64,000 nucleotides of DNA from positions 26,923 through 90,922 of the forward strand of contig CAZVGS010000002.1 in NCBI GenBank assembly GCA_964627245.1, read 5' to 3'. Positions 509 through 56,594 of the stretch are shown here, piece by piece. A program made the position numbers and the translations under genes. A model generated the notes under the pieces. That model ran no database searches, had not been told where the DNA came from, and worked only from the letters and a program-made list of their open reading frames with translations. This DNA is from an uncultured Gammaproteobacteria bacterium (GTDB taxonomy: Bacteria > Patescibacteriota > Microgenomatia > Levybacterales > GWA1-39-11). The first letter of the stretch is position 1. Every line of letters starts with the position of its first letter.

Positions 509-3500
509 ATGAATATGAAACAAAGAGTGAGTATAAAAAAACCACTCACACAAAAACTTAAAGGATTTTTCAGCGGAATTAGAAAACCTTTACTAGCCCT
601 ATTTTTCTTATTTACTTTCTCCTCTCTTTTTTTGACATCTCAAGTTTTTGCTTCTCAATCATTCTTATCACAAACTGGCTTAGTTAATAGTAACAACACT
701 ATCTTGGAAATTATTTTGTCCGTAGTCTTGGTTTTATCATTAGGATTAAGCTTGGCCTGGATTTTAATTTATTTAAAACATCGCCACAGGGAACATGAAT
801 ACACAGGTGCAGCGGGCAGTCATAAAGCGCATGATAATTTCTCAGATATAAAATACCACCTTTGGCTATTAAAGCATCTTCCCTTCAAACTTCAGCCCAC
901 GAAGGTGAAGAATCACGCCCACCAACCATATACCCTGAAAGATAATTTTCTGTTTCTACTCTTTCACCCATATTTCGGAGCCTTAAGAAAAGCAATTGCG
1001 TTCTGGCTTATCATCTCTATTTCATTTTCAAGTTCTGGAATTTACTTTCTTGCGAATGCTAGTCCGACACAAGCAGCTGGCGATTTTTCTATAAAGACAG
1101 GATATTTTCTTGGATCGGGGGTAACAAGGTCTATTACCGGTCTTGGTTTTCAACCGGAATTAGTAATTATCAAATCAGACACAGCGGCAGGGCAGTTGGT
1201 GTGGAAGTCGTCGGCAATGCCCGCTAATGTAAGCACTTACCTTGGTGTCGCTACCGCAGACAACACGGAGACTGAAATTACGCTTGATGCCGACGGTTTT
1301 ACGGTTTCAGCCGCCCTGGAGGTCAATACCGCCAACGTCAATTACACCTATGTAGCTTTGGCAGGTTCTGATTGCACCTCAGCGGGTGTATTTTGTGTTG
1401 GTTCTTATACCGGAGATGGCGCCAGCACAAAGAGCATTACAACTGGTTTCCAGCCAGATTTAGTGTGGGCCAAGCGTACGACGGCCTTGGCCGGAGTATT
1501 CAGAACCTCATCAATGAGCACTAACCATGCAGGCTATTTTTCCGCAACCGCAAATAATACAACCGGGACCTTTTTTACGACGCTGGACGGTACCGGCTTT
1601 ACCGCAGGACTAACCAATAACACTAACGGGGGCAAGTACTATTATGTAGCTTTCAAAAATATTGCCGGAAAGACAACGGTTGGTCAATTTACGGGCAATG
1701 GAGTGGATAACCGGGATATTTCTGGCGTGGGATTTGAGCCGGACTTTGTTTTCGTAAAGCAAGATAGCGCCGTCACACCGGTTTTTAACACAACAGATAT
1801 GTACGGGGACTACTCTGCCTTTACTACGGCTGCTGCCAATGCCGTTAACAATATCCAATCACTGGATTCTGACGGATTCCAGGTCGGTAACAGTACCAGT
1901 GTCAATGCTGCAGGTATAGTGAGTCACTATTTTGCCATCGGCGGATCGCCGGACCCGTCACCGGCGGGAAGCTTCCTGATGGAACGGGGTAATTACACCG
2001 GCACGGGTGTAAGCCATGTTATAAGTACCTCTTTTGTTCCGAATCTCGTCATAGTCAAGGGCGACACCATCCAGTACGCAGTATGGAGTACCAGCCTGGA
2101 AGGAGACGCAACCGAGTATTTCGCCGCTGCGGGTGCTGCTTTTACTTCCGGAATAAATATAATAACCGACACGAGCGGATTTACCGTCGGCACAAACGCG
2201 ACTGTAAACTCAAATGGTATTACGTATGAATACATCGCGTTTGGTAACGCGACTTCACCCCGGCTGGGAAATGGAGCGGCAGATTTCTATATAGGATCTT
2301 ACACCGGAAACGGCCTTGACGGGAGAAAGATTGATCACCTTGGTATTGGCGCGGATATGGTCGTAATCAAAAGGACTAACGGCACTGCAAACCAGTCCTT
2401 CTGGAAGACGACTAGCCCGGTTATGACCGATAACACAACGGCATATTTTTCTGCAACAACTGATGACACGACGGGAGTATTGGTTAAGACACTTGATTCC
2501 GGCGGTTTTACGCTTGGAAGTAACGCGGGTACGAATGCCGCCGGCGCCACATATAACTGGTTTGCTTTTAAAGAAGGTGCCAATTTTGATATCGGCTCTT
2601 ATGCGGGCGATGGGGTGGCAGATAAAGAAATTACCGGCGTGGGTTTCCAGCCTGATTTTGTCTGGACCAAAAGAAATTCGGCAATTGCCGCAGTTCATAA
2701 ATCAAGCGACAGCGGGATTGCCAGTAATTATTCCCAGCATTTTATGAACCTGGCAAACGACACCAATGACATAAAAACTTTTACATCCGACGGCTTTACG
2801 CTTGGTAACTCTGCTGAAGTAAATACTTCGGGCGGGACCTACAGGTACGCAGCTTGGGATAGTTCAACCTCCAGCAACCCGCCGAGTACGCCAACCAATT
2901 CATCCCCCGCTGGTGGTGCGACAGCGCAAAACTTAAACGCCACACTTACCGGCTCGGCATATTCTGATCCCGATTCCAACGCTCAAACGGATTCGCAGTG
3001 GCAGGTGGATGATGATTCTGACTTTGCGACACCTGTTTGGACCAGAACAGCAGGTGCAAGCGGCGTAACAACATCTGTAACTTCCGCAAATGGGACGTTT
3101 GCCAATGAGCTGAGCGGCAAGACAGAGCTGGATCATGCAACTACCTATTACTGGCGGGTAAGGTACTCAGACGGTACATATTCTTCGTGGTCCACCGGAA
3201 CAAGTTTTACAACAAATACTATTTCTACACCAACACATTCATCTCCGGCAGACCAGGCAACCGTCACCACACTTACACCCACACTAACAACCTCAGCATT
3301 TTCGGATACCCAAAGCGGACATACATCTGCCAATGCCCAATGGCAGATAAGTGCATCCAGTTCTTTTTCAAGTCCTATTTATGACTCGGGAACTGTAAGC
3401 TACGGTGCTTCCTTGGTTGTTCCCTCCGCAACGCTTTCAAATGGGAATGTTTATTATTGGAGAGTCCGATATCAGGATTCAACTAGCCAATGGTCATCAT

Positions 3501-5728
3501 ATTCTACCGCTACGCGTTTTCTTGTCCAGCAATCGACTTCAAGTTCGATAGCAAAGTTGACACCTTTGTTTGGGAGCACAGTCGTAGACCAGGGAGATGC
3601 TGTAAAAATTGACGCGCAATTCTTGTCCTCTGCAGGCGCACCTATAAATGACGCAACTGCGACTATAAATATTTATAACCCAAGCGGAACCCTGGTTGTA
3701 ACTGCGCAGACAATGAGTTATATCGCAAGTTCAAACGGTATATACAGATATTCATATACCATCCCTTCAACCAGCGGAAGTTATCTGTATGATGTGACGG
3801 CAACTTCGGGAAGCACCACAGGATACGGAGCCGAAAACTTTGAGGTAAGGACAATCGTTTCTGATATCAGTTCTGCCAAATCGGCAGCCGAATCCGCTCA
3901 ATCAGCAGCTGTGTCAAATCAATCGACCCTTTCTACCATCAACACAAATCTCAATACTGCCAACACCAATATTAATACTATCAATACGAATGTTTCTGCC
4001 ATAAAAAACGCTACAGTAAGTGTGACAGGAGTAATCTCTGACTCTTCTCCGTCTGATTCATCTTTCAAAACCAATTTGACTGCCGGGAAAGATGATTTTT
4101 ATAAAAATATGGTAATTACTTTTACATCTGGTGACAATTCCGGCCAATCCAGAAGAATATCCAGCTATTCCCAGTCTGACAAGAAAATAAGCGTCGATCC
4201 GTCATTCTCTTATACCCCTGCCGATGGAGATACTTTTGTTATTAATGTAGGCTCTGTCCGAGCAGAGGAACTTTCTGGCTCGGCCAAGTCAACGATCGAA
4301 TCAGTCCAAACAAAACTCAACTCCCTATCGGGGACTCTGCCGTCAAACTTCTCGGGTGTTTATGACCAGCTTGTAACTATAACCAATCAGCTCTCATCAC
4401 TCGGGGCTATCAAAGGCAACGGAGCCGAGGCACTTTATGATCTTTCTCCTGCCAATAAAGACGATATCAAATATTTAAAAAATAAAATTCTTGATCTGCA
4501 AGCAGCTATGGAAATCACCAAGGCCATGCTTTCGGGTGATCAAAATTCTGTATTTTCCACCTGGTATACATTTAATTCCGTGGTATTGAATATGCTGATT
4601 GCCAATCCGACAGATCGTGACGCGACAATTCCCTTTAAAGCCTATCTGCCAAAAGAGGCCAAACCCGAGCACATCATCTCCTCCGGCGGGATGAAGGTGG
4701 AATATGATGAGGGTGCAAATGCGTATTATGTCAGCGGTGAGTTTGATTTAGATGCAGGCGATTCTATTACTAAACAGGTTGAAATCAAGGACATTTGGTT
4801 GATAGATGAAAGCGAATTGAATGGATATAAAACTCAGGCAAATGATTTATACAATGAAGCCAAGTCTACTGCTTACTCGGCTCAAGCGTTGGTTTTGAAA
4901 AATGATACGAATAACCGGATTGATAAAATTCTACGCTCTCAAAAAGAAAATAACGCCGATCCCACCGAACATATCCAAACCTTCCGCAATAATCAGGATG
5001 ATCTGATATCTATAAAGGATAATCTGAAAAAAATGACAGATCTTGTCACTTCTGCTGGAGCAGGAAGAGGGATGTTGGCATCAGTCGGAGGGATACAGAC
5101 TGTCGCCTCGTGGGGAATTATTGTCATGCTTATAGCCGGTTTTGTAATTTTAGGAGTTTTCTCTTACACAATGTGGAAGCACCAGATGATGGTAACAGCT
5201 CTGGCTTCCGGTAAGCTTCAGGATGGCAAAAGAAGATTGTCGCCTGAATTAGTTGGTAGTAATGTCTTGGATGAGATAAAAAAGCCGATGGTAGCATTAA
5301 GTATACCTCGACTGAATCTTCATTTCTTGACGGCAATTTACAAGTTAAAATGGCTGGCGTTGTTGGGTTTGGTAATAATAATTATTTTTGCTTTTTATAA
5401 AGGGTTTGTTTCCAACCCATGGCAAGCATTAATAACCAATCCAACTTCTATTCCAACAGTCTCACCAACATCTATTCCATCTCCAATACCTAGCCCAACG
5501 CCTGTTGAGAAAAAAGTAACAGTGCTGGAAACCGAAACAGGATGGTTAAACGTCAGGGAAGAACCGACTATAAAAAGTGAAGTTCTAGGCAAGGCAGACG
5601 TTGATAAAACGTATACAGAACTTGACAGAGAAGAAAACGATTTACAGGAAGAGTGGATAAAAATCAGATTAAATAATGAGATCGAAGGTTGGGTTTTGGG
5701 AAAGTATGTAGAAAAAGCTTCAAACTAG
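509..5728 (+). CDS. giant membrane-anchored surface protein (repeat modules, Fn3-like modules, C-terminal SH3b-like domain)
   Basis: 1739-aa ORF. N-terminal hydrophobic anchor. Six ~95-aa repeats carry a G(F/I)(Q/E)PD(L/F)V motif. Two modules end in YYWRVRY (Fn3-like). N/T-rich coiled-coil-like segment, two TM helices near aa 1530-1600, PT-rich linker, C-terminal GW..W..V SH3b-like domain. Confidence 0.75.
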   Translation: MNMKQRVSIKKPLTQKLKGFFSGIRKPLLALFFLFTFSSLFLTSQVFASQSFLSQTGLVNSNNTILEIILSVVLVLSLGLSLAWILIYLKHRHREHEYTGAAGSHKAHDNFSDIKYHLWLLKHLPFKLQPTKVKNHAHQPYTLKDNFLFLLFHPYFGALRKAIAFWLIISISFSSSGIYFLANASPTQAAGDFSIKTGYFLGSGVTRSITGLGFQPELVIIKSDTAAGQLVWKSSAMPANVSTYLGVATADNTETEITLDADGFTVSAALEVNTANVNYTYVALAGSDCTSAGVFCVGSYTGDGASTKSITTGFQPDLVWAKRTTALAGVFRTSSMSTNHAGYFSATANNTTGTFFTTLDGTGFTAGLTNNTNGGKYYYVAFKNIAGKTTVGQFTGNGVDNRDISGVGFEPDFVFVKQDSAVTPVFNTTDMYGDYSAFTTAAANAVNNIQSLDSDGFQVGNSTSVNAAGIVSHYFAIGGSPDPSPAGSFLMERGNYTGTGVSHVISTSFVPNLVIVKGDTIQYAVWSTSLEGDATEYFAAAGAAFTSGINIITDTSGFTVGTNATVNSNGITYEYIAFGNATSPRLGNGAADFYIGSYTGNGLDGRKIDHLGIGADMVVIKRTNGTANQSFWKTTSPVMTDNTTAYFSATTDDTTGVLVKTLDSGGFTLGSNAGTNAAGATYNWFAFKEGANFDIGSYAGDGVADKEITGVGFQPDFVWTKRNSAIAAVHKSSDSGIASNYSQHFMNLANDTNDIKTFTSDGFTLGNSAEVNTSGGTYRYAAWDSSTSSNPPSTPTNSSPAGGATAQNLNATLTGSAYSDPDSNAQTDSQWQVDDDSDFATPVWTRTAGASGVTTSVTSANGTFANELSGKTELDHATTYYWRVRYSDGTYSSWSTGTSFTTNTISTPTHSSPADQATVTTLTPTLTTSAFSDTQSGHTSANAQWQISASSSFSSPIYDSGTVSYGASLVVPSATLSNGNVYYWRVRYQDSTSQWSSYSTATRFLVQQSTSSSIAKLTPLFGSTVVDQGDAVKIDAQFLSSAGAPINDATATINIYNPSGTLVVTAQTMSYIASSNGIYRYSYTIPSTSGSYLYDVTATSGSTTGYGAENFEVRTIVSDISSAKSAAESAQSAAVSNQSTLSTINTNLNTANTNINTINTNVSAIKNATVSVTGVISDSSPSDSSFKTNLTAGKDDFYKNMVITFTSGDNSGQSRRISSYSQSDKKISVDPSFSYTPADGDTFVINVGSVRAEELSGSAKSTIESVQTKLNSLSGTLPSNFSGVYDQLVTITNQLSSLGAIKGNGAEALYDLSPANKDDIKYLKNKILDLQAAMEITKAMLSGDQNSVFSTWYTFNSVVLNMLIANPTDRDATIPFKAYLPKEAKPEHIISSGGMKVEYDEGANAYYVSGEFDLDAGDSITKQVEIKDIWLIDESELNGYKTQANDLYNEAKSTAYSAQALVLKNDTNNRIDKILRSQKENNADPTEHIQTFRNNQDDLISIKDNLKKMTDLVTSAGAGRGMLASVGGIQTVASWGIIVMLIAGFVILGVFSYTMWKHQMMVTALASGKLQDGKRRLSPELVGSNVLDEIKKPMVALSIPRLNLHFLTAIYKLKWLALLGLVIIIIFAFYKGFVSNPWQALITNPTSIPTVSPTSIPSPIPSPTPVEKKVTVLETETGWLNVREEPTIKSEVLGKADVDKTYTELDREENDLQEEWIKIRLNNEIEGWVLGKYVEKASN

Positions 5729-46408: not shown

Positions 46409-47053
46409 TTGAATATTATGAGTGCTGAAATGCGTCGTTTTTCTCATGATCCGATTGTTGATAAGGCTCTCCTTGAAGAGGTGCCTTCTTCTCATGTCTA
46501 TCCCGTTGATATTATGAATTGGGCTTTTATGAGATATCTTGAAACTGGTAATGAAAACTATGCTCACTGGACATATTTAGGATCTCGTTCTGTATATTTC
46601 TTTGAAAAAGACGGTGAATACAGATTACCCAGAGACAAGGAAGAGGATCATATCAAAAACTGCGCCAAAAGAATCTTGGAAATTGAACCTAAAAGTTTTG
46701 GACACGCAATAAAACTTATTCAAGAAGGGGCGATGCTTGTTAATCCGCTCAGCCTTAATAAACCTAATGGAGAAGACGGGCAAACTCTTGAAGGAACAAT
46801 AGGAATTGTTACTGAAGAAGTAGAAGGGGGAATAATTCGAGAAAATGACCGGGAAGAAGCATTAAGGCTGCTTGCAAGATTGGGCGAAAGAAAACGAAAT
46901 GTTTTGGAAAAAAGATTTGGCATTGGGTATGAAAGGTCTTACACCCTTGATGAAATTGGACAAGAAATTGGAGTAACAAGAGAGCGTATAAGGCAAATCG
47001 AAGCCGAGGCACTAAAAGATTTACGCAATTTTCTCACAACAGAAAAATCTTAG
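46409..47053 (+). CDS. sigma-70 region 4-only protein with an unknown N-terminal domain
   Basis: C-terminal [47 protein letters not shown] is near-identical in pattern to rpoD region 4. No region 2 or 3 is present. Confidence 0.6.
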   Translation: MNIMSAEMRRFSHDPIVDKALLEEVPSSHVYPVDIMNWAFMRYLETGNENYAHWTYLGSRSVYFFEKDGEYRLPRDKEEDHIKNCAKRILEIEPKSFGHAIKLIQEGAMLVNPLSLNKPNGEDGQTLEGTIGIVTEEVEGGIIRENDREEALRLLARLGERKRNVLEKRFGIGYERSYTLDEIGQEIGVTRERIRQIEAEALKDLRNFLTTEKS

Positions 47054-47325: not shown

Positions 47326-47613
47326 TCCGCGATAGCTCAATGGTAGAGCAGGAAGCTGTAAAAAATGCAGCCCTTGAGGGAAACTTCAAGGTGAATAATC
47401 GGGCTAATTCGGGGAAACCCTAAGCATGTCGAGGGGTAATCCCGAGCTAAATTCCTAAGCCAAACTAAGGACTTGTCCTGAGCGAAGCAGAAGGATAAAT
47501 GTGTAGAGACTATATACCCGACACCTCAAATGGTGATGAGATAGTCCAAGCCTTCTAGAAATAGAGGGGTTCTTGTAACTTCAAGGTTCTAGGTTCGAAT
47601 CCTAGTCGCGGAG
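47326..47613 (+). tRNA. tRNA-Asn (GUU) interrupted by a group I intron. Exons 47326-47359 and 47576-47613.
   Basis: Exons join to a 72-nt cloverleaf: U1-A72 and G73 (Asn identity), D-arm GCUCAAUGGUAGAGC, anticodon loop CUGUUAA, T-arm CUAGG-UUCGAAU-CCUAG. Confidence 0.7.
47360..47575 (+). ncRNA. group I self-splicing intron within the tRNA-Asn anticodon loop (between positions 35 and 36)
   Basis: P1 helix: exon GCUGU (U-1 wobble) pairs with IGS GCAGC across loop AAAAAAU. R- and S-like core elements GAGACUAUAUAC / GAGAUAGUCC form P7 (GACUA/UAGUC). P9 hairpin CCUUCUA-GAAA-UAGAGGG. Terminal G at 47575. Confidence 0.65.
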
Positions 47614-49182
47614 CAAAATGGGACGATGACGATACAATAAGTCACTTTCCGCTGTTATATCAATCTTTTTCTCTTGTTCGAAAATTTTAGCTGTTAAAAC
47701 TGCTTGTTTTTTAACTTTCGAACTTTTGACTTCAACTGCTAGTTCTGACAGAAGACTGAAAGGAGCTGTGAAATTAAAGACTAACTTACCTTCATCAAGT
47801 GCTAAGTTTTCAAATACTAAGGTTATTAGCTTTCTTCTTTCATCTCTATTTCCCTTCAAATATAGTTCTTGCGCTTTTTGAGACAACTCATATAAATTAG
47901 AGCCTAATTCTTGATATTTTGTGCTTGATTGTGAGTGCTGTTTAATCGATGTTACAAGTTGATTCTTTTCTTCTGAAAACTCAGTAAATAAAGTATCGTA
48001 TTTAGCTTTCGATATAACTTCATCTAGTCTGTCTTTGTATAAATTGTCCATTCTCTTTTGTATGCGCTCTAAATTTCTATTAAGCTCTGTAATCGCTGTA
48101 TTGTTGTAATTAATCTCTTCCTTGTGAGCTTCTTTTAATGATTTTCTTATCCAGTCGATTAGCCTCACATTTTTAATTTGGAGTCCATCTAGAGCATCAA
48201 CAATCTGTTCTTCAACTTCTTTTTCTTTAGCCCATGCTTGCTGTTTGCAATCTCTATAATGATTACAGTGCCCATAGACAATTCCTTTCTGAATTTCCCA
48301 AGTGATTCGACCCTCACAGCCTACACATTTGACTATTCCTTGAAATAGAAAGTGGTGTTTTCGATATTTAGGAGTAGTTTTGCTCTTAAGAACACTATTA
48401 ACCTTAGTAAAGACCTCTTCGCTGAGAAGTGCTTCATGTTGTCCCTGATGTACATTCTTGTTCCATCTGATTTTACCAATATAGAAAGGGTCTGAAAGTA
48501 GTTGATGAATTCGACTCTTAACTAACTTATTGCCCGTATATCCACGAAGTCCTTCTTGTGACATCATCTCTGTTAGCTTGCTAAGTGAAATCTCGCCTGT
48601 TGCATAGAGTTCAAACATTCGTCTTACGAGAGGAGCTTTCTTCTCGTCTATTACATGTATCTTTCTCCCTTTTTCTCCTACACTGATGTATCCAGGAGGT
48701 GCTTTTGTTGGCATCCAACCTTGAGCTATTTTCTCTTTCTGTCCTTTCTTTACATTTTCTGATAAAAGCTTAACGTAATATTCAGCTGTAGCACATTTAA
48801 CTCTCCACATAAACCATTCGTGAGACCTTGAATCCCTGTGTAAAACACAGCCTTCTTTTGCAAGTCTTATTTGATGGTTTGAATCTTCATGAATCCATTT
48901 ATCAATAATTGGCACGTCAACAAAATTTCTTGTCAATCTATCAGTAGTCTCGACAATAACTCCAAAAATGTCTTTCTTCTTGATGTATGTAATCATTTCA
49001 TTGAATACTTTTCTTTGCATAACTCCAGAAGCTGATTCTGAAACAGCAAAGACCTTAACAACTTCAAGACCTTCTTTTTCAGCGTATTCTCGAAGATACT
49101 TCTCTTGTGCAGGAAGAGAGTAACCTGCTTCTTCCTGTTCTTTACTTGATACTCTACAAAAGATAACTGTTCTCATATACAC
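47602..49182 (-). CDS. large serine recombinase (integrase)
   Basis: N-terminal CRVSSKEQ catalytic Ser region, recombinase domain, zinc ribbon CVGCEGR..HCNHY, coiled coil. The 3' end overlaps the tRNA-Asn 3' end. Confidence 0.85.
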   Translation of the reverse strand: MYMRTVIFCRVSSKEQEEAGYSLPAQEKYLREYAEKEGLEVVKVFAVSESASGVMQRKVFNEMITYIKKKDIFGVIVETTDRLTRNFVDVPIIDKWIHEDSNHQIRLAKEGCVLHRDSRSHEWFMWRVKCATAEYYVKLLSENVKKGQKEKIAQGWMPTKAPPGYISVGEKGRKIHVIDEKKAPLVRRMFELYATGEISLSKLTEMMSQEGLRGYTGNKLVKSRIHQLLSDPFYIGKIRWNKNVHQGQHEALLSEEVFTKVNSVLKSKTTPKYRKHHFLFQGIVKCVGCEGRITWEIQKGIVYGHCNHYRDCKQQAWAKEKEVEEQIVDALDGLQIKNVRLIDWIRKSLKEAHKEEINYNNTAITELNRNLERIQKRMDNLYKDRLDEVISKAKYDTLFTEFSEEKNQLVTSIKQHSQSSTKYQELGSNLYELSQKAQELYLKGNRDERRKLITLVFENLALDEGKLVFNFTAPFSLLSELAVEVKSSKVKKQAVLTAKIFEQEKKIDITAESDLLYRHRPILLRD

Positions 49183-49369: not shown

Positions 49370-49660
49370 CTATATATTTGTGAATTCCTTAGCTTTTTCA
49401 ATTATTTTCTTCTCTAGTTTTTCCCATAACGCAGAATCCTTAATTCTTGCAACCCAAAAATATGCTTTGTTTCTTCCTTTAACAGATGGCGGAGACACAA
49501 ACCATACAGGCGATACAGGTGAATATTTCGTTGTTCCATATCTAACTACAAATCCGCGTATTTCAACTACTTCTTTAATTAATATGTTTGCTATTACAAC
49601 ATTATCCTTTTTGTCTCTAGATTTTATCTCGACTTCTATTTCATCAATTGTTATTTTCAT
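49370..49660 (-). CDS. SpoVG-like small protein
   Basis: 96 aa. The hydrophobic pattern aligns by eye to SpoVG (ITxD.I.V...A.I.I..E.V.IRGF.V..G...W...P). Unverified. Confidence 0.4.
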   Translation of the reverse strand: MKITIDEIEVEIKSRDKKDNVVIANILIKEVVEIRGFVVRYGTTKYSPVSPVWFVSPPSVKGRNKAYFWVARIKDSALWEKLEKKIIEKAKEFTNI

Positions 49661-49797
49661 TTAACCTCCTTTCTTCAATTTTTCTTAGACTTTCAAAAAA
49701 GGTTACGAGTGAATTGCCAGCTATTTCTGCTTCTTCTTCAGAAAGGTGCGCACCATATTCTTCTAGAAAGATGGTTTTTAGCTCTTGGATAGCCTCA

Positions 49798-50109
49798 TTA
49801 CTCATCTTTTTGCCCTCCCTTGTTTGAACCTGTATCAGATTGCGAAAATAAGCGGGTTTTTAGCCATCTTTGTGCATTAAGTAGTATTATGGGCTCAATT
49901 AGCTCTTGCCTCGCCCAAAACGCATTTACCAAGCGCTCAGCCTCATTTGTGTGTTCGAAGATAAAGATTTTTCTATTTGAGTTTATAGAGTCTTTGATTT
50001 CAAGAAGGTGAACGTCTTTTGCCAGAAGGAAAGATGCGAGATAAAAATCAGCAGTCTCTATAGTTTTACGATTCATATTCATACGATTTATTCGTATGAA
50101 GTATCTCAA
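49798..50109 (-). CDS. hypothetical protein
   Basis: 103-aa ORF in the island with no motif recognised. Confidence 0.4.
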   Translation of the reverse strand: MRYFIRINRMNMNRKTIETADFYLASFLLAKDVHLLEIKDSINSNRKIFIFEHTNEAERLVNAFWARQELIEPIILLNAQRWLKTRLFSQSDTGSNKGGQKDE

Positions 50110-50145
50110 AAGAGGGTGCTCGTGAAAGTTGTCAGTTGTAAATCT

Positions 50146-50877
50146 CTAACTGGCAATTTCGTTGAGAAGTTTTAAATACTGAGGCAATTCTCGCATCGTA
50201 GGGATATCATACCTCTCACAAACTCGATAATACGCTTCTTTATGTTGTTTTTTGAGTTCATTCAGCTTCTTATCATCTTCTAAATTCTTTTTTACTAGTA
50301 TTTCCTCGAGCGCTCTATCAACCATTGATGCTCCATCCTCTTCTGCATATAGTATGTCGTTGGGCTTGCCTTTCTTCCAATATTTAAGAAGCTTTTTTTC
50401 TATTTCGAAGTAAAGATTGAGCCCTAGCTTAATATCATCACTCCCTAGCTGGTATCTTTCTTTCTTCTTTTTGAAATCTTTTGGATTAGCATTTTTGAAT
50501 AGCTTCATTTTCTCTACTAAAAGTGACGCTTCATCATACAGCTCTAACCATTGTTCTCTTGTAATAAATGGGTTGTATCGGACATAAACGCCTTCCTCCT
50601 CAACTTTTACAGGGTGGCCACTGACAACAACCTTATCGTTTTTATACTTATATAACTTTTTCCCTCCTAGATATGCTAACTGGTAGAAAAGGCTAGTAAT
50701 GAGCTGTAATTTTTCAAGCTTCTCAATGTCTTTTGCTGTCTGTTTTTTAAGTTTTAGTTTATTGGTTTTCTTTTTTAACTCTCCCCAAAGTACTTTTATT
50801 ACGAAATTGTTTCCAAGCATGTCTTGTTTAATTTCCTTGAAAAGAGCTTTATTTTCGTCTTCATTTTTCATTTTCAT
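50146..50877 (-). CDS. hypothetical lysine-rich protein
   Basis: ORF trimmed to an internal Met to avoid overlap with the divergent downstream gene. K/E-rich with no motif recognised. Confidence 0.4.
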   Translation of the reverse strand: MKMKNEDENKALFKEIKQDMLGNNFVIKVLWGELKKKTNKLKLKKQTAKDIEKLEKLQLITSLFYQLAYLGGKKLYKYKNDKVVVSGHPVKVEEEGVYVRYNPFITREQWLELYDEASLLVEKMKLFKNANPKDFKKKKERYQLGSDDIKLGLNLYFEIEKKLLKYWKKGKPNDILYAEEDGASMVDRALEEILVKKNLEDDKKLNELKKQHKEAYYRVCERYDIPTMRELPQYLKLLNEIAS

Positions 50878-50937
50878 AATTGTGTGTAATTTTATCATGA
50901 CTGCTGTATCTTGTGATAGAATAGCCCTGCAAATCAA

Positions 50938-52264
50938 TATGTATCACACACAACAAAATAAACTTACCATTTTAATAGACCCACTATATATTCACACAGA
51001 AGCATCGCAACAGCTAATCCACAACCAGGTAGCTATTCATACCGTCTTACACTACTTGAAGGGCATTGTTAACAACAAAGTATCAGTGGAGGTAGTTTTC
51101 CCTAAATTCCTTTGGAGTGGCGATTGGAAAGAAAGATATCAAGCATATGTTCCAGCTGATAATCCATTCTACGGAGATGAATTCTTTAAAGTACTTGAAA
51201 ATAAAGAACCTCTACCAGAGTGGGCAAAACAACGGGTGGAACAAACTAAAAGCTATCTTGAAACGAAAAAAGAACCCTACCTTAAGTTTGAAAAATTTCA
51301 ATCTACACCTGAAGGACTAAAGAAACTTTTAGATAGCATGAAAGATGGAACTCTCTTTATGTATCGAGATGCTGATTACCTTTACCATAAGGGGTTTATG
51401 GAACTTATTGATATATATTTTGCTTATGAATGCGACTTACTGCTAACCGCCAATAGAGTGTTGCATGCGGAGAAAAAGAAGCTAAACAGCGACTACCGAT
51501 TATTTCCCGTAAATTACCCAGAGATTTTTGAAGAAATCGAAACTTTTTTAAAGGGTCATCATATCTACATATCTCATGCAAACCCAATATACGGACTCCA
51601 AATGGCAGTTTTCTATCCTATGACTGATACAAAACTAATGGAATATCAAATTTCTATGAATAAAATTCTAGGACTTAAGAAAGATGCACAAGTATACCAG
51701 TATTTTAGAAGCATGTTTTATCACCGCTATTCATTTATTAGGTATGCGATTGACCAGATAAAATTTAACATGTTTCAAGCTGAAAGGCTCGAGGACAATG
51801 GGCTTAGGGCAAGCCATTATTTCCTTGCAAGCTATCACTTGAATAGTTTCTATCTTAATCTATGGGGTTTTATAGATAATCTTGCTTGGGTAATAAATCA
51901 TCTCTACGACTTAGGATTTAATATAGAAAAAACAGCAACAAAAGTAAGTTTTATTAGCAAAGACTATTTAAAGAAATTGAAAGAAAAAAAGCTAGATATT
52001 TATAACTTACTGAAAGAAAAAGAGAACAAAGATTGGCTTGCAAATCTTGCAGACAAACGGCATCCTGCGGCTCATAGAGAACCTTTGTTTATGTCTCCTG
52101 TGTATGACAAGAATGATATGAGCCTAATTGCAGAAGGCTTGATTGTAGTGAATACAAAAAAAGGACAAGAAATGTTTAAGGCAATCAATCACATGAATTA
52201 TGATTTTGAACAACTATTAAAATTTACTGATAATATATTAAAACTTCTTGAATCTAAAGCTTAG
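50938..52264 (+). CDS. hypothetical protein with C-terminal Rx4H (HEPN-like) motif; candidate abortive-infection/defense protein
   Basis: Start set at MYHTQQ (the upstream part of the track ORF overlaps the divergent gene). C-terminal LADKRHPAAHREPL fits the HEPN Rx4-6H signature. About 442 aa. Confidence 0.4.
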
Positions 52265-52304
52265 ATTTAATCTCCCAATTTCCATGAATGAAATAAAGGG
52301 ATTT

Positions 52305-53438
52305 TTATCCAGCTTGATAGAGGGCTTGAATGTTCTTCTTATTCTTGAATAAATCAGGTTGTTTTTTATTTAACCTTTTCAATGAAGTTTTAATCGCAAA
52401 TTCTGAATTATCAATACCTATCCAGTGTCGTTGAAGTGAATCTGCCGCAACAAGTGTGCCACCTGACCCACTGAAGCAATCAAAAACAATATCTCCTTCG
52501 TTAGAAGAGGTTGATATTATCGTTTTTAGTAATTCAAGATTTTTTTCTGTAGGGTAGACTGGTCTAGTTGGGTCCTTAAATTCCCAAATGTCTTGCAACT
52601 TCTTAAATGGCATTTCGTCAGCGTAAACTTTCTTTCTTGGATTACCTGTGCTTGACCACTCGATTAAACCCTTTGCCTCCAACTCATCTAATACCGTTGG
52701 GTCATATCTCCAATGTCTTCCTTTGGGAGGAAGCATTCCTTTCCATGGCTTACCAGTATTTCCATTGCTTGTTTCACCTGGAGCATGAAGCGGATTGGTA
52801 GTATAGTAGCGTCCATTTACATCTATTTTGTTAAATAACCTACTTATCTCGCCTTCTGACCTTTTATGTTTAGGCTCATTCCAAATATATTTGTCAGTTT
52901 TAGTATAAAAAAGTATTAGGTCTTTAATGTTTCCGTAAGCTTTTCTACTAAAATTTTTAGGATTACACTTTATTCTTGTTATGTCATTTCTAAAATTTTT
53001 TTGTCCAAAGACTTCATCCATTATGACTTTTATATAGTGCCCAATTTTATAATCAATATGCAGATAAATAGAGGCTTCATCTGACATTAATTCACGGATA
53101 AAAATGAGTCTTTCACGGATAAATTCCAGAAAGTCTGCCCCAACTAGAGTATCGCTATAAGCAATGCTGTCCTTAAGACTACTGCTTACATGCGATGTTC
53201 TTTCCTCGCTACCTCTAAAAACAGTGTTTGTTGAAAATGGAGGGTCAATATAGACCAAACTGATTTTGCTCTTCAAATTAAAGTCATTAAGAAGTGTTTT
53301 CATTACTCCTAAATTATCTCCTTTAATCAACATGTCTTTTCCATCTTTATAGGAAATGTTCTCGGCATCTAGCTTTACCTGCTTAGTGTTTGAAAGTATA
53401 GATTGTTTAGTTTTCTTACCTTTATAAGTTAATTCCAT
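52305..53438 (-). CDS. DNA methyltransferase (beta-class N6A/N4C) of an R-M system
   Basis: VYIDPPFS motif (IV) followed by C-terminal FDCFSGSGGT (I). Confidence 0.8.
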   Translation of the reverse strand: MELTYKGKKTKQSILSNTKQVKLDAENISYKDGKDMLIKGDNLGVMKTLLNDFNLKSKISLVYIDPPFSTNTVFRGSEERTSHVSSSLKDSIAYSDTLVGADFLEFIRERLIFIRELMSDEASIYLHIDYKIGHYIKVIMDEVFGQKNFRNDITRIKCNPKNFSRKAYGNIKDLILFYTKTDKYIWNEPKHKRSEGEISRLFNKIDVNGRYYTTNPLHAPGETSNGNTGKPWKGMLPPKGRHWRYDPTVLDELEAKGLIEWSSTGNPRKKVYADEMPFKKLQDIWEFKDPTRPVYPTEKNLELLKTIISTSSNEGDIVFDCFSGSGGTLVAADSLQRHWIGIDNSEFAIKTSLKRLNKKQPDLFKNKKNIQALYQAG

Positions 53439-53445
53439 AGTTTTC

Positions 53446-54228
53446 TTATAATGAGTGCAAAAAATCTCTCAGAAGCAAACTGCTCAAAATGTTGTATTCT
53501 TCCTCATGCGAAGTCAAAAAACGATGAAAATTACTTCTTCCTCTCAAATAAAGTACACCATCATATATTGCTACTTTGACCGCATTAACGTTATTATTTT
53601 TCAATAAAGTTAATCCATCAGCGAACTGCCTATCTTGATGTCCTCCAAAATCAGTTAAGAATTTGGCTTCACCAATTACATATTTACCATGCATACGAGC
53701 TATAAAATCCAACCCTTTTTGCTCTTCATAGCCTAAATTATTTTTGGCAAACTGTTTAAGCTGAGCATCGCCTCCATCTAAAATCGCATCTCTTTCTGTT
53801 GCTATAAACTCAAGTTCTGGTAATACCTCTAATCCTAAAGTTTTTTGATTAAGCCACCTTCTAAAAAGAGGACCTATTTGCCTATTCGTTTCCTTTGGCT
53901 CTGAAGTGCGAGCATATATTTTCTCCAGTCCCATTTCATATAATCTGCCACAAATTCGCTTAACTGTTTCTGGATTTCTGTCTATTGCAGATTTATCTCT
54001 TCTCAAGAAAGGAATATATGAGTCCTTAATCGGAAACAATTCTAAACTAAGCAAACTCTTCATAAGCTCTGAATCGTCTCTACTCTTAAATGCTACCTCT
54101 ACATTGCCCCAAGCGGTTTCATTTACTTCTCTTATCGTATCGGGTGCCAATGGATAAACAGTAAAAAGCTCATCAAGATAATTTTTTTGATTTGCAAATT
54201 GGATACTTAAGTCTGTCCAATAATTCAT
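53446..54228 (-). CDS. type II restriction endonuclease (PD-(D/E)xK) candidate
   Basis: Sits between the C-protein and the MTase on the same strand. Putative catalytic D..IGEAK motif. Confidence 0.5.
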   Translation of the reverse strand: MNYWTDLSIQFANQKNYLDELFTVYPLAPDTIREVNETAWGNVEVAFKSRDDSELMKSLLSLELFPIKDSYIPFLRRDKSAIDRNPETVKRICGRLYEMGLEKIYARTSEPKETNRQIGPLFRRWLNQKTLGLEVLPELEFIATERDAILDGGDAQLKQFAKNNLGYEEQKGLDFIARMHGKYVIGEAKFLTDFGGHQDRQFADGLTLLKNNNVNAVKVAIYDGVLYLRGRSNFHRFLTSHEEEYNILSSLLLRDFLHSL

Positions 54229-54388
54229 TTTAGTTATTAGTAAGCTATCTAAATCCTATTTTTCATTCTGTATTGTTTCTTTGCTGTCATAACTTATTTA
54301 ACATTATTTAACATTCTAATATTGTAGTCAACTGACTGAAGTTTGATTAGTATAGCAGAGTAGGCCAGAAAGAAGTCGATAGAAAATG

Positions 54389-54595
54389 TTATTTTAATAA
54401 ATCTGAAACTGGAATTTTTAAAGCTAGAGCAATAAGATTTATTGTTCTTAAAGTAGTATTCCTTTTGCCCGCTTCTATAGCAATTATTGTCCTAGGGTCG
54501 CATTTTGTCATTTCTGCAAGTTCTTCTTGAGTAAGTTTTCTTTGTCTTCGAAACCTTTTTACATTCTCTCCAAACTTTTGATAAATAGAAGCCAT
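54389..54595 (-). CDS. HTH XRE-family controller (C) protein of an R-M system
   Basis: 68-aa HTH_XRE (LTQEELAEMTKCDPRTIIAIEAGKR) immediately upstream of the R gene: classic C-R-M layout. Confidence 0.6.
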   Translation of the reverse strand: MASIYQKFGENVKRFRRQRKLTQEELAEMTKCDPRTIIAIEAGKRNTTLRTINLIALALKIPVSDLLK

Positions 54596-54681
54596 AGTAT
54601 ACCCTTGCTAATCTGACATATATGTCATATAAATAACAGGAAATATATTTCATATTTAGCCTGAAAGTTGAGCTTGAAAGC

Positions 54682-54912
54682 ATGATGAAGTTTTTGATTT
54701 ATTTATTCTTTTGGCCAATAATATTATTGTGGAAATCTCTTATGTGGGGTCTGGGAATAAAACGTACAACGAAATGCTTGAGATGTGGAAGTAAAAAGCT
54801 CAATAAGGATAAACCTAATTGGATACAGCATGCGAGTAGCGTATTGATTGGCTACAGGTCTAGACCTCTTAATGTTTGCAGAGATTGTGGATTTTCTTGG
54901 GAGGATAGATAA
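54682..54912 (+). CDS. small membrane protein with C-terminal zinc-ribbon
   Basis: N-terminal TM helix, CLRCGS ... CRDCG pairs. Divergent from the C-protein gene. Confidence 0.35.
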   Translation: MMKFLIYLFFWPIILLWKSLMWGLGIKRTTKCLRCGSKKLNKDKPNWIQHASSVLIGYRSRPLNVCRDCGFSWEDR

Positions 54913-55289
54913 ATACAAATATAAGTAACTATGCTTCACGACTTTTGTATTTTTATTCCGTAGGGCGAAGCGAGGAACGTTGTATCCAAAAGAGTTCAAA
55001 AATAGATTTTTCAACCTGGGGGTATTAAGTACGAGGAGTTTTAGAACTTAATGTACGCACAATGAAGAAGATAGTTGTTTCACTCTTAAACACATTCAGC
55101 TAAAGTCTTAAAACATCTTATAAACTCTATTCTTAGTATATATTTTATATACAGAAATAATTGATATACTTTTTCATGAGATTTAGTGATGCATTGCATC
55201 ATGAAGTGAGGATTTCACTTGATATCTTGTACATTAGTTCTGGAGACTGTACTTGATTTACCCACTGCATAGTTCGAAAATCGTCTAGC

Positions 55290-56594
55290 TTAGTGAGCAT
55301 TGACGTGCTGTGTTTTTTCCCAATGAGATTGACCTATGAGTAAACGCGTTAATGCTCTGAGGGAGCTAAAACCAATAAGCAATTGAAAGGGGTAAAAAGT
55401 ATATAAGATTTTCAGTGGCGACCACAAAGGATACTTCAGCTTGTAACTTTTCGTAAATTCGTAGAGCCCTACATTGTAGATGATTAACTGGAGAGTCATC
55501 AAAAGTAGTGGGAGAAATGCAAAAAGAGCTATGCCTACTGGTAACTTTAGGGTAAGCACAGTAATAATTGACAAAGGAATAAGCAAAAATAGCAACGCTT
55601 GGAGTTCAGGAAGTACCAAAATGTAGAATGCAAGAAGTTTCTGTGTAAGGCGTGGAAGTTTGAGCCAATCTCCCTTCGAAAGTACCTGCATAAAACCTTG
55701 ATTCCATCTTGTCCGTTGGCGAATGAAGCTCTTTACATCTGTTGGTGTTTCCTCTTGGGTGACATGTTGCTCGCTATATACAACTCTGACTTTTGCTCCA
55801 AGTGCACTAAGTCGAATACCAATATCTGCATCTTCCGTTAAGCAATTTTCATCCCAGCCTCCAGCCTGTTCAAGACGAGTTTTTTTGAAAAATACAGTGT
55901 TACCACCAAGTGGAATAATTCCTATTTTTGCAAAGAAATGAAGCGTAGATTTAAACCAAAAGAAATACTCCAATACATTCAAAGATGAGAACCAAGAAGA
56001 GCGAAAATTCATTAATTGTACTCCTGCTTGCACAACGTCTGCTTTTTCTCGTTCCAAGATTGTGTTGACAATATTATAGATATCTTTATGTGGTTGGTCT
56101 TCAGCATCGAAGATAACAACAATGTCTTTTGTTGCGTGTTTTAGTCCAATATTGAGACTATGTGGTTTGTTAATCGGAGTGTCATCAAATACGACAAGAC
56201 GTATGTTCTTTTTCCCGAGCAATTCAATAATCTCTTTGGCTTTCGAAATAGTAAGCACGTCATCATACCTACACACAATAATTATCTCTTTAAGTTCTTC
56301 AGGATAATTGATATTTGATACTGCCTTTATTGTATCCCCAACAACTTTTTCTTCGTGTCTTGCAGGGATAATTGCACTAAACGATTGTTTTGGTACTGCA
56401 TAATTTTTTGGGGGCGCATCTTTCTCCATTCGTTCCGCATCTTCCCATGCATACAACATCCAATAAATACTAAAAATACTTTGAAATGATAATAGTGTAG
56501 AAAGAAAAGCAACAGCAAATATAATTAATGTTTGCCCTGTAAAGACTCCAGCACTGAGCAAAGTATAAATTGCGATACCAACTCCTCCAAGCAA
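55290..56594 (-). CDS. family 2 glycosyltransferase, processive type (QxxRW)
   Basis: DxD (FDAEDQ) and QRTRWNQG motifs, with multiple TM helices flanking a GT-A domain. Confidence 0.8.
   Translation of the reverse strand: MLGGVGIAIYTLLSAGVFTGQTLIIFAVAFLSTLLSFQSIFSIYWMLYAWEDAERMEKDAPPKNYAVPKQSFSAIIPARHEEKVVGDTIKAVSNINYPEELKEIIIVCRYDDVLTISKAKEIIELLGKKNIRLVVFDDTPINKPHSLNIGLKHATKDIVVIFDAEDQPHKDIYNIVNTILEREKADVVQAGVQLMNFRSSWFSSLNVLEYFFWFKSTLHFFAKIGIIPLGGNTVFFKKTRLEQAGGWDENCLTEDADIGIRLSALGAKVRVVYSEQHVTQEETPTDVKSFIRQRTRWNQGFMQVLSKGDWLKLPRLTQKLLAFYILVLPELQALLFLLIPLSIITVLTLKLPVGIALFAFLPLLLMTLQLIIYNVGLYEFTKSYKLKYPLWSPLKILYTFYPFQLLIGFSSLRALTRLLIGQSHWEKTQHVNAH

Follow-up and report, generated by a model that had tools for sequence, protein, structure and literature searches.

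A predicted HEPN ribonuclease of the Cthe_2314-like family, with an unannotated second domain, carried beside a restriction–modification system on an integrative element of a Patescibacteriota bacterium

HepT proteins are dimeric Rx4-6H ribonucleases (RNases) built on a minimal HEPN domain of ~130 aa, and they are paired with an MNT nucleotidyltransferase antitoxin. The Cthe_2314-like HEPN family was defined by Anantharaman et al. in 2013 (PMC3710099), who entered its neighborhood context as 'None detected'; the same survey describes the arrangement of HEPN domains, with the motif where helix 3 ends and an acidic residue in helix 2. Here we analyze a gene from a 64,000-nucleotide stretch of DNA, hereafter the window (contig CAZVGS010000002.1 of GenBank assembly GCA_964627245.1, positions 26,923 to 90,922), that comes from an uncultured bacterium assigned by GTDB to the Patescibacteriota. 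The product is predicted to be a two-domain protein whose C-terminal half falls in the Cthe_2314-like family, and the gene is carried next to a restriction–modification (R-M) system on an integrative element.

A first-pass annotation, made from the letters alone, had singled out a C-terminal RHPAAH string as the signature of an HEPN RNase. The string is present as R374-H-P-A-A-H379 (52058..52075, plus strand; residues are counted throughout from the ATG at 50939), where it forms an Rx4H motif. By itself the motif is no more than chance would provide, as the protein contains three R-x4-6-H strings, and when its own residues are shuffled, Rx4H turns up 36% of the time and Rx4-6H 75%. It is significant because R374 and H379 are invariant among 119 relatives. 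Close homologues number only 19 among 5.8 billion proteins (31–100% identity; the named sources are Candidatus Pacebacteria and Levybacteria), and R374, P376, A378 and H379 are invariant among them, with the arginine and histidine present in 20/20 close sequences. Searched with a profile, 1.84 billion cluster representatives yielded 613 relatives at E ≤ 1e-3, mostly of 400–460 aa and sharing profile positions ~155–405. From these, 119 near-full-length representatives, for the most part down to ~20% identity with the window protein, were placed in a hidden Markov model alignment in which R374 (119/119) and H379 (119/119) are the sole invariant columns. At D313 the alignment has D in 106 sequences and E in the other 13; together with N314 (D313-N314, within DNLAW; 51875..51880, plus strand), it is the conserved helix-2 acid of the HEPN site. 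Invariance of the arginine and histidine plus a retained helix-2 acid is the pattern expected of catalytic residues. We take RHPAAH to be a candidate catalytic signature and, by analogy with HEPN RNases, infer RNase activity.

Profile searches point the same way. Residues 292–438 of the protein match PF18730 (HEPN_Cthe2314) at 33.0 bits (E 7.5e-8), above the gathering score of 27.1, and 54 of the 110 relatives that were scanned singly match this model as well; other HEPN families matched within the 110 are Apea (7), LA2681 (5), Abi_2 (4) and DUF4145 (2). Searches of NCBIfam and PHROGs gave no significant match for the HEPN protein. The HEPN profile comparison proposed in the first-pass annotation thus returned a HEPN family, PF18730, but the window protein matched no Abi model.

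Structure was predicted with AlphaFold2 on the 20-sequence alignment, secondary structure was assigned by DSSP, and structure searches were made with Foldseek. The full-length model has a predicted local distance difference test (pLDDT) score of 85.2 and a predicted template modeling (pTM) score of 0.86, and the C-terminal 197 residues modeled alone reach a pLDDT of 90.4. The HEPN domain (residues 250–441; 51686..52261, plus strand), delimited from PF18730 and the AlphaFold2 models, is predicted to consist of helices H1 (250–282), H2 (287–322, which includes D313-N314), H3 (361–373) and H4 (415–438), with two inserts, one helical (329–358) and one a three-stranded β-sheet (385–414). RHPAAH stands directly after H3 in the predicted model, and the order H1-H2-insert-H3-Rx4H-H4 agrees with the description in PMC3710099. 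The HEPN-like four-helix fold, which had been named as the structural check on the idea, is therefore recovered in the predicted model. Many of the Foldseek matches to the C-terminal domain are HepT-type HEPN toxins (6m6u, 7bxo, 6m6w, 5yep and 8yuf). With a family match above its cut-off, an invariant motif in both the close and the wider alignment, and the HEPN helix order in the model, the HEPN-type domain with an Rx4H motif proposed at first pass stands, and we regard membership of the protein in the HEPN superfamily as very probable. No relative of solved structure emerged when PDB sequences were searched with profiles built from the 20- and 119-sequence alignments, and a Foldseek comparison of the full model with viral structures returned nothing meaningful.

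Ahead of the HEPN domain, the AlphaFold2 model places an unannotated Rossmann/PIN-like α/β domain (residues 1–245; 50939..51673, plus strand) in which strands (8–13, 49–55, 83–86 and 167–169, with a bridge at ~190) alternate with helices. No Pfam family, PIN models included, matched the N-terminal half in any of the 110 relatives. The domain is homologous across the wider family, where the hydrophobic pattern of β1 is kept and D166 and G206 are conserved in 90% and 94% of members, and the close family shares the motifs LxILID14P, RDAxYLY, C-D166-LLL-T170-x-N172 and E201-xFLKG206-H. The top PDB match of the full model is HARP (7e8j), a PIN-type protein-only RNase P, with a probability of 0.99 over 215 aligned columns; the match is weak (E 0.016, TM 0.39–0.41, root-mean-square deviation 8–10 Å) and presumably runs through the N-terminal α/β domain of the model. 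The β/α alternation and the HARP match would both suit the three-layer α/β/α fold and parallel sheet of PIN-like nucleases, but other Rossmann-like folds, namely a macro domain and an isochorismatase-like amidase, are also in the full-model Foldseek list. The acidic active-site set of PIN domains is not conserved family-wide in the close and wider alignments: full invariance of the candidate catalytic D14 is confined to the close subfamily, the residue being kept in only 65% of the wider family and lost in ~35%, and position 172, after β4, varies among N, S, D and A. Because of this incomplete conservation of D14, the variable position 172 and the weak HARP match, we label the domain 'Rossmann/PIN-like' and assign it no function. 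It is more probably a regulatory or structural domain than a universally active second nuclease.

The gene itself occupies 50939..52264 on the plus strand, from an in-frame ATG at 50939 to the stop at 52262-52264, and encodes 441 aa plus the stop. The first-pass annotation had recognized a real open reading frame (ORF) here, but began it one base early, at 50938, and its 442 'residues' included the stop codon. The mechanical open frame begins at 50699 and offers two plausible ATGs, at 50939 (441 aa) and 50897 (455 aa). The 455-aa form is the choice of gene callers (database copy P0001), and its ATG is kept in two related loci, L010 and L001; in the 20-sequence alignment, the first residue of most homologues is the methionine equivalent to 50939. 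Translation may thus begin at 50939, the start favored by most homologues, with 50897 as the alternative. Between the window and the 85%-identical L010 copy, synonymous sites are near saturation (pS 0.70) and the ratio of nonsynonymous to synonymous substitution rates (dN/dS) is 0.04. The gene is under purifying selection, and is therefore functional.

The HEPN gene is cargo of a ~7.7-kb integrative element and sits beside an R-M system. On one side is a large serine recombinase (47602-49182, minus strand) with Resolvase, Recombinase and Zn_ribbon_recom domains. On the other, a Tsp45I-type type II R-M operon (52305..54595), likewise cargo, runs convergently toward the HEPN gene and comprises an N6/N4 methylase (52305-53438), a Tsp45I-family endonuclease (53446-54228; PF06300, E 8e-112) and a helix-turn-helix (HTH) controller (54389-54595), all on the minus strand. 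These domain matches confirm the position between a recombinase and an R-M operon that had been read from the ORFs at first pass. L010 has the same arrangement, in the order recombinase, (AAA_25), small ORFs, DUF5659, lysine-rich ORF, HEPN gene on the opposite strand, methylase, Tsp45I endonuclease and HTH; it is 81% identical to the window over 5.6 kb, from 49729 to 55299, and beyond this the flanks differ. The GC content of the 47.6–55.3 kb block is 34.2%, compared with 38.6% for the window, and the low-GC host genome is probably that of a member of the Patescibacteria.

A tRNA gene split by a group I intron (47326-47613, plus strand) probably marks the left edge of the element and the site that it targeted for integration; it was recognized by Rfam RF00028 (77.2 bits over 47349-47568) and by ARAGORN with its intron option. 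The intron is ~216–220 nt long, and the tRNA is missed by ARAGORN at its default settings; with the intron option the call is tRNA-Asn(GUU), an identity that hinges on precisely where splicing occurs. The recombinase ORF and the tRNA gene share 12 nt at their 3' ends (47602-47613). L001 has the same geometry, with tRNA-Met (2497-2566) overlapping a resolvase (2554-4272) by 12–13 nt (2554-2566), and the T-arm and acceptor of the tRNA, along with the sequence just beyond, are alike in the window and L001 elements. These likenesses point to a family of serine-recombinase elements that target tRNA genes in bacteria of the candidate phyla radiation (CPR) type, with a common backbone of DUF5659 and small ORFs. 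In the window, the DUF5659 protein (49798..50109, minus strand; PF18903, 35.7 bits), which also occurs in the L001, L010 and L015 elements and on which we found nothing in the literature, is separated from the recombinase by a 96-aa ORF without family assignment (49370-49660, minus strand). A 76-aa ORF with two CxxC pairs, Zn-ribbon-like (54682-54912, plus strand), lies beside the R-M controller gene.

A clean pair of direct repeats bounding the element was sought and rejected: no exact repeat exists, and there is just a loosely tRNA-3'-end-like sequence at 55271-55299. The homology between the window and L010 ends in this region, at 55199-55299 and L010 8433-8533, with the loosely tRNA-3'-end-like …GGTTCGAAAAT…GTGAGCA. 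The L010 stretch encodes the C-terminal end of a second serine recombinase, and its counterpart in the window abuts the stop of a glycosyltransferase (55290). The sequence may be left over from a tandem element, or it may be the right attachment site. To the left of the tRNA gene, right after rpoD, is a 214-aa ORF (46409-47053, plus strand) whose C-terminus repeats the sigma-70 region 4 of RpoD and which looks like a truncated or second sigma-like protein.

Across its homologues, the gene is found in changing company. Serine-recombinase elements carry it in the window, L010 and L001–L003. In the defense island of L008/L018 it keeps company with an SNF2/PLD helicase, a type IIG R-M system, PDC-S19/DUF3644 and a controller-type HTH protein, and in L008 a 67-aa HTH ORF ends 18 bp upstream of the homologue. 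A further defense island, in L013, encodes a PDC-S02 nuclease, a UG19 defense reverse transcriptase (382 bits) and an AbiV-type HEPN protein. In an Elusimicrobia metagenome-assembled genome (L019, 1191-5293), a 498-aa SUKH-1 and HEAT-repeat protein overlaps the start of the homologue and a Zn-finger/MUG113 (GIY-YIG-like) protein follows downstream, so that the SUKH-HEAT, HEPN and Zn-finger/MUG113 genes may form a three-gene operon; SUKH is a typical domain of immunity proteins. In L011 (4088-7313), the homologue P0014 lies between separate ORFs that bear the ComEC domains 'Competence' and 'Lactamase_B', which looks like an insertion into, or next to, a split comEC. No co-transcribed partner is conserved, and neighbors differ at every locus examined; because of this the HEPN gene appears to be self-contained. 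It is also rare, with 5 loci among 185,579 genomes in a scan of species-representative genomes made with the close alignment. Patchiness, mobility, changing neighbors and repeated defense-island settings are typical of a self-contained conflict gene.

The gene that diverges from the HEPN gene in the window deserves separate attention. It is a lysine-rich ORF of 243 aa (50146..50877, minus strand; 18.5% Lys, pI 9.3), the start of which was set by an 86%-identical homologue in L010, and it is the first gene of the backbone operon. It had been described at first pass as a lysine-rich divergent partner; divergent and lysine-rich it is, but the partnership does not hold, as each gene occurs without the other. 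The ORF has no matches in Pfam, NCBIfam, PADLOC or PHROGs and only 3 homologues among 5.8 billion proteins. The operon that runs from the lysine-rich ORF through DUF5659 to the recombinase recurs in L010 and L015, and the 150 nt upstream of the lysine-rich ORF in L015 and L016 are closed by stops in every frame and lack a HEPN start. Conversely, most loci with HEPN homologues have no lysine-rich ORF, and the ORFs beside the HEPN gene in L001-type elements are unrelated to it. Because it is found without the HEPN gene (L015), and the HEPN gene without it, we consider the lysine-rich ORF a backbone gene and not a cognate partner. For the same reasons (no homology to the L001 genes in that position, missing at most HEPN loci, HEPN-free in L015) it was rejected as a cognate antitoxin.

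Between the two genes lies a divergent spacer of 61 bp (50878..50938, no strand assigned), measured from the lysine-rich ORF to ATG 50939, in which the first-pass annotation, counting 60 bp, had noticed a possible extended -10 element. The sequence tgtgatagaat is indeed present at 50912-50922 and reads TGnTAGAAT at 50914-50922 (plus strand), 16 nt upstream of ATG 50939; a minus-strand promoter-like site (-35 at 50917-50912, TG-extended -10 at 50894-50889) overlaps it back-to-back. A scan of the region for consensus promoters, however, gave 23 sites against 23.1 expected from shuffled sequence, so that by this measure the putative extended -10 is indistinguishable from chance and is a pattern match only. 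The spacer as a whole differs between the window and L010 (4160-4219) at 5/61 positions, with the last 33 nt identical, whereas the synonymous sites of the flanking genes are ~70% different. It is under constraint because it has far fewer differences than these synonymous sites; the constraint could come from promoters or operators, or from coding sequence if translation begins at 50897.

What, then, does the protein do? With moderate confidence, we propose a stand-alone, dimerizing HEPN RNase that serves as defense or abortive-infection cargo. By analogy with HEPN RNases (PMC3710099; also HepT, Csm6 and RnlA), two copies would dimerize, and their R374-x4-H379 motifs plus D313 would build a composite, metal-independent RNase site. 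The N-terminal α/β domain would be a regulatory, sensing or oligomerization module, in this subfamily possibly a second nuclease, and would restrain the RNase until a trigger such as phage infection. Upon activation during infection, RNA would be degraded and the infection aborted, backing DNA restriction by the neighboring R-M system. The protein would thereby provide a second-line, RNA-targeting defense that needs no dedicated partner gene. More tentatively, and as a possibility to which we give slightly less than even weight, the ~440-aa α/β plus Cthe_2314 HEPN architecture may represent an uncatalogued stand-alone anti-phage (abortive-infection) system. It spans at least 613 clusters at 50% identity, none of them characterized or in PADLOC. 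In such a system the N-terminal domain would sense infection or act as a second nuclease, unleashing the HEPN RNase, and the gene would have spread in CPR bacteria as cargo of tRNA-targeting serine-recombinase elements with R-M systems.

Several observations weigh against the proposed defense RNase. A number of homologues occur in ordinary housekeeping settings: one is at dnaJ-X-lepB (L004), and another, P0020 (L022, 5222-8627; 23 sequences in its 90% cluster, 19 contigs read), has small bacterial RRM_1 RNA-binding proteins as neighbors on either side. Searches of phage and plasmid collections by tblastn found no match, and PADLOC-DB v2 gave no significant match for the HEPN protein; its one hit, HEC-03A, covers 50 residues within the N-terminal domain at 13 bits (E 0.019). 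Similarity to solved HEPN structures is weak (Foldseek E 0.15–3, TM ≤ 0.53), the PIN-like label for the N-terminal domain depends on one weak Foldseek match, to HARP, and the candidate catalytic D14 is absent from about a third of the wider family. A literature search on PF18730 turned up just a table row in the 2013 survey and a passing mention. An antitoxin-free, potent RNase would also need tight self-inhibition, which is here postulated.

The gene could instead encode the toxin of a toxin–antitoxin (TA) or addiction module that stabilizes the element and is neutralized by an adjacent gene, here the lysine-rich ORF and elsewhere the HTH or SUKH protein. HEPN domains are classic toxins, as in HepT/MntA, and solved HepT chains recur among the structural matches; the gene is carried by a mobile element, the HTH ORF of L008 and the overlapping SUKH-domain protein of L019 are placed as antitoxins might be, and the divergent spacer is as strongly conserved as an autoregulated operator would be. 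Against this, no partner is constant across loci, solo homologues exist, and no MNT-type nucleotidyltransferase is among the nearby genes. The lysine-rich ORF of the window has only 3 homologues, is divergent, is the first gene of the recombinase operon and is HEPN-free in L015, and the L001 elements have unrelated genes in its position. We consider an addiction module unlikely.

Less likely again is a housekeeping or stress RNA-processing enzyme of CPR-type bacteria, such as a maturation nuclease with PIN-like and HEPN domains analogous to Las1 or HARP. Very patchy occurrence, at 5 loci in 185,579 species genomes, is hard to square with this, as are a variable genomic position, repeated defense-island contexts, and closest homologues that reside in mobile elements of lower GC (34.2% versus 38.6% for the window). 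The strong purifying selection would fit such an enzyme, as would the protein-only RNase P that tops the PDB matches of the N-terminal domain and the homologues located between dnaJ and lepB or between RRM proteins. It is also conceivable, but very improbable, that the HEPN-like domain is a non-catalytic binding or scaffold module in which RHPAAH is incidental, leaving activity to the N-terminal α/β domain. Some HEPN families are inactive, Swt1 among them (PMC3710099), chance produces Rx4H in 36% of shuffles, and D14, D166 and N172 are invariant polar residues of the N-terminal domain in the close family. Yet across 119 relatives that are mostly only ~20% identical, R374 and H379 are the sole invariant residues and the helix-2 acid is kept, whereas the N-terminal D14 is lost in ~35% of the family. 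A stand-alone HEPN RNase carried as defense cargo remains the reading that we prefer.

The advance is modest in kind. The family itself is known, named since 2013 and with a Pfam model, and one more predicted HEPN RNase in a defense-type context will not surprise a specialist; what is new are the neighborhoods, the N-terminal domain and the carriage on CPR integrative elements. The bare guess from an Rx4H string proved right, yet the motif alone would not have sufficed. The loci described here provide the first neighborhood information for a HEPN family to which the 2013 survey gave no context, newly linking it to R-M systems, defense reverse transcriptases, AbiV-type HEPN proteins and serine-recombinase elements, and the Cthe_2314-like family is shown to have a conserved, unannotated second domain. 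CPR bacteria (Patescibacteria) have small genomes and few recognized defense systems. For this reason, a putative single-gene RNA-targeting module on a 7.7-kb element is a cheap and testable candidate.

How does the protein compare with known HEPN systems? It resembles the single-protein abortive-infection (Abi) HEPN proteins (AbiD/AbiF/Abi_2, AbiJ, AbiU2 and AbiV) in having a C-terminal Rx4-6H HEPN domain after an unrelated N-terminal domain, in needing no obligatory partner and in occurring in mobile-element and R-M or defense contexts. The L013 homologue shares its island with an AbiV-type HEPN protein, and 4 distant relatives weakly match Abi_2. The window protein, however, matches no Abi model and has a different N-terminal domain, and any Abi-type role for it is putative. 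HepT, of the HepT/MntA type VII TA system (5yep, 6m6u, 7bxo), is a recurrent structural neighbor of the C-terminal domain; unlike HepT/MntA, the locus has no MNT, and the protein has an extra 245-aa N-terminal domain and, unlike HepT, a β-sheet inserted between its Rx4H motif and H4. HARP (7e8j) offers a likeness in the Asp after β1 (D14), as in PIN domains, but the match is weak, no PIN Pfam model matches any of the 110 members, and the acidic residues are not kept family-wide.

In overall plan, an N-terminal Rossmann/PIN-like α/β domain, a C-terminal HEPN domain and a similar size, the protein is like Csm6/Csx1 (CARF-HEPN) and Swt1 (PIN-HEPN), which set a precedent for a HEPN RNase that is gated, or accompanied, by an α/β domain. 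Swt1 differs in that it is a eukaryotic protein, with a HEPN domain that PMC3710099 lists as inactive. A CARF-HEPN (Csm6/Csx1-like) reading was considered and rejected: no such structure is among the top 50 Foldseek PDB matches, and the 44–60 kb ORFs and annotated neighbors include no signaling, CRISPR or cyclic-oligonucleotide genes. With the Cthe_2314-like family (PF18730), whose gathering score it passes, the window protein shares the Rx4H motif, the helix-2 acid, the helix order and, in most wider members, a length of ~400–460 aa. The PF18730 model spans the HEPN half alone, and the N-terminal α/β domain is undescribed there. We place the window protein in a subfamily of Cthe_2314-like HEPN proteins from CPR-type and other uncultured bacteria; where the 2013 survey had no context for the family, the closest members are here found on recombinase elements beside R-M systems or in defense islands.

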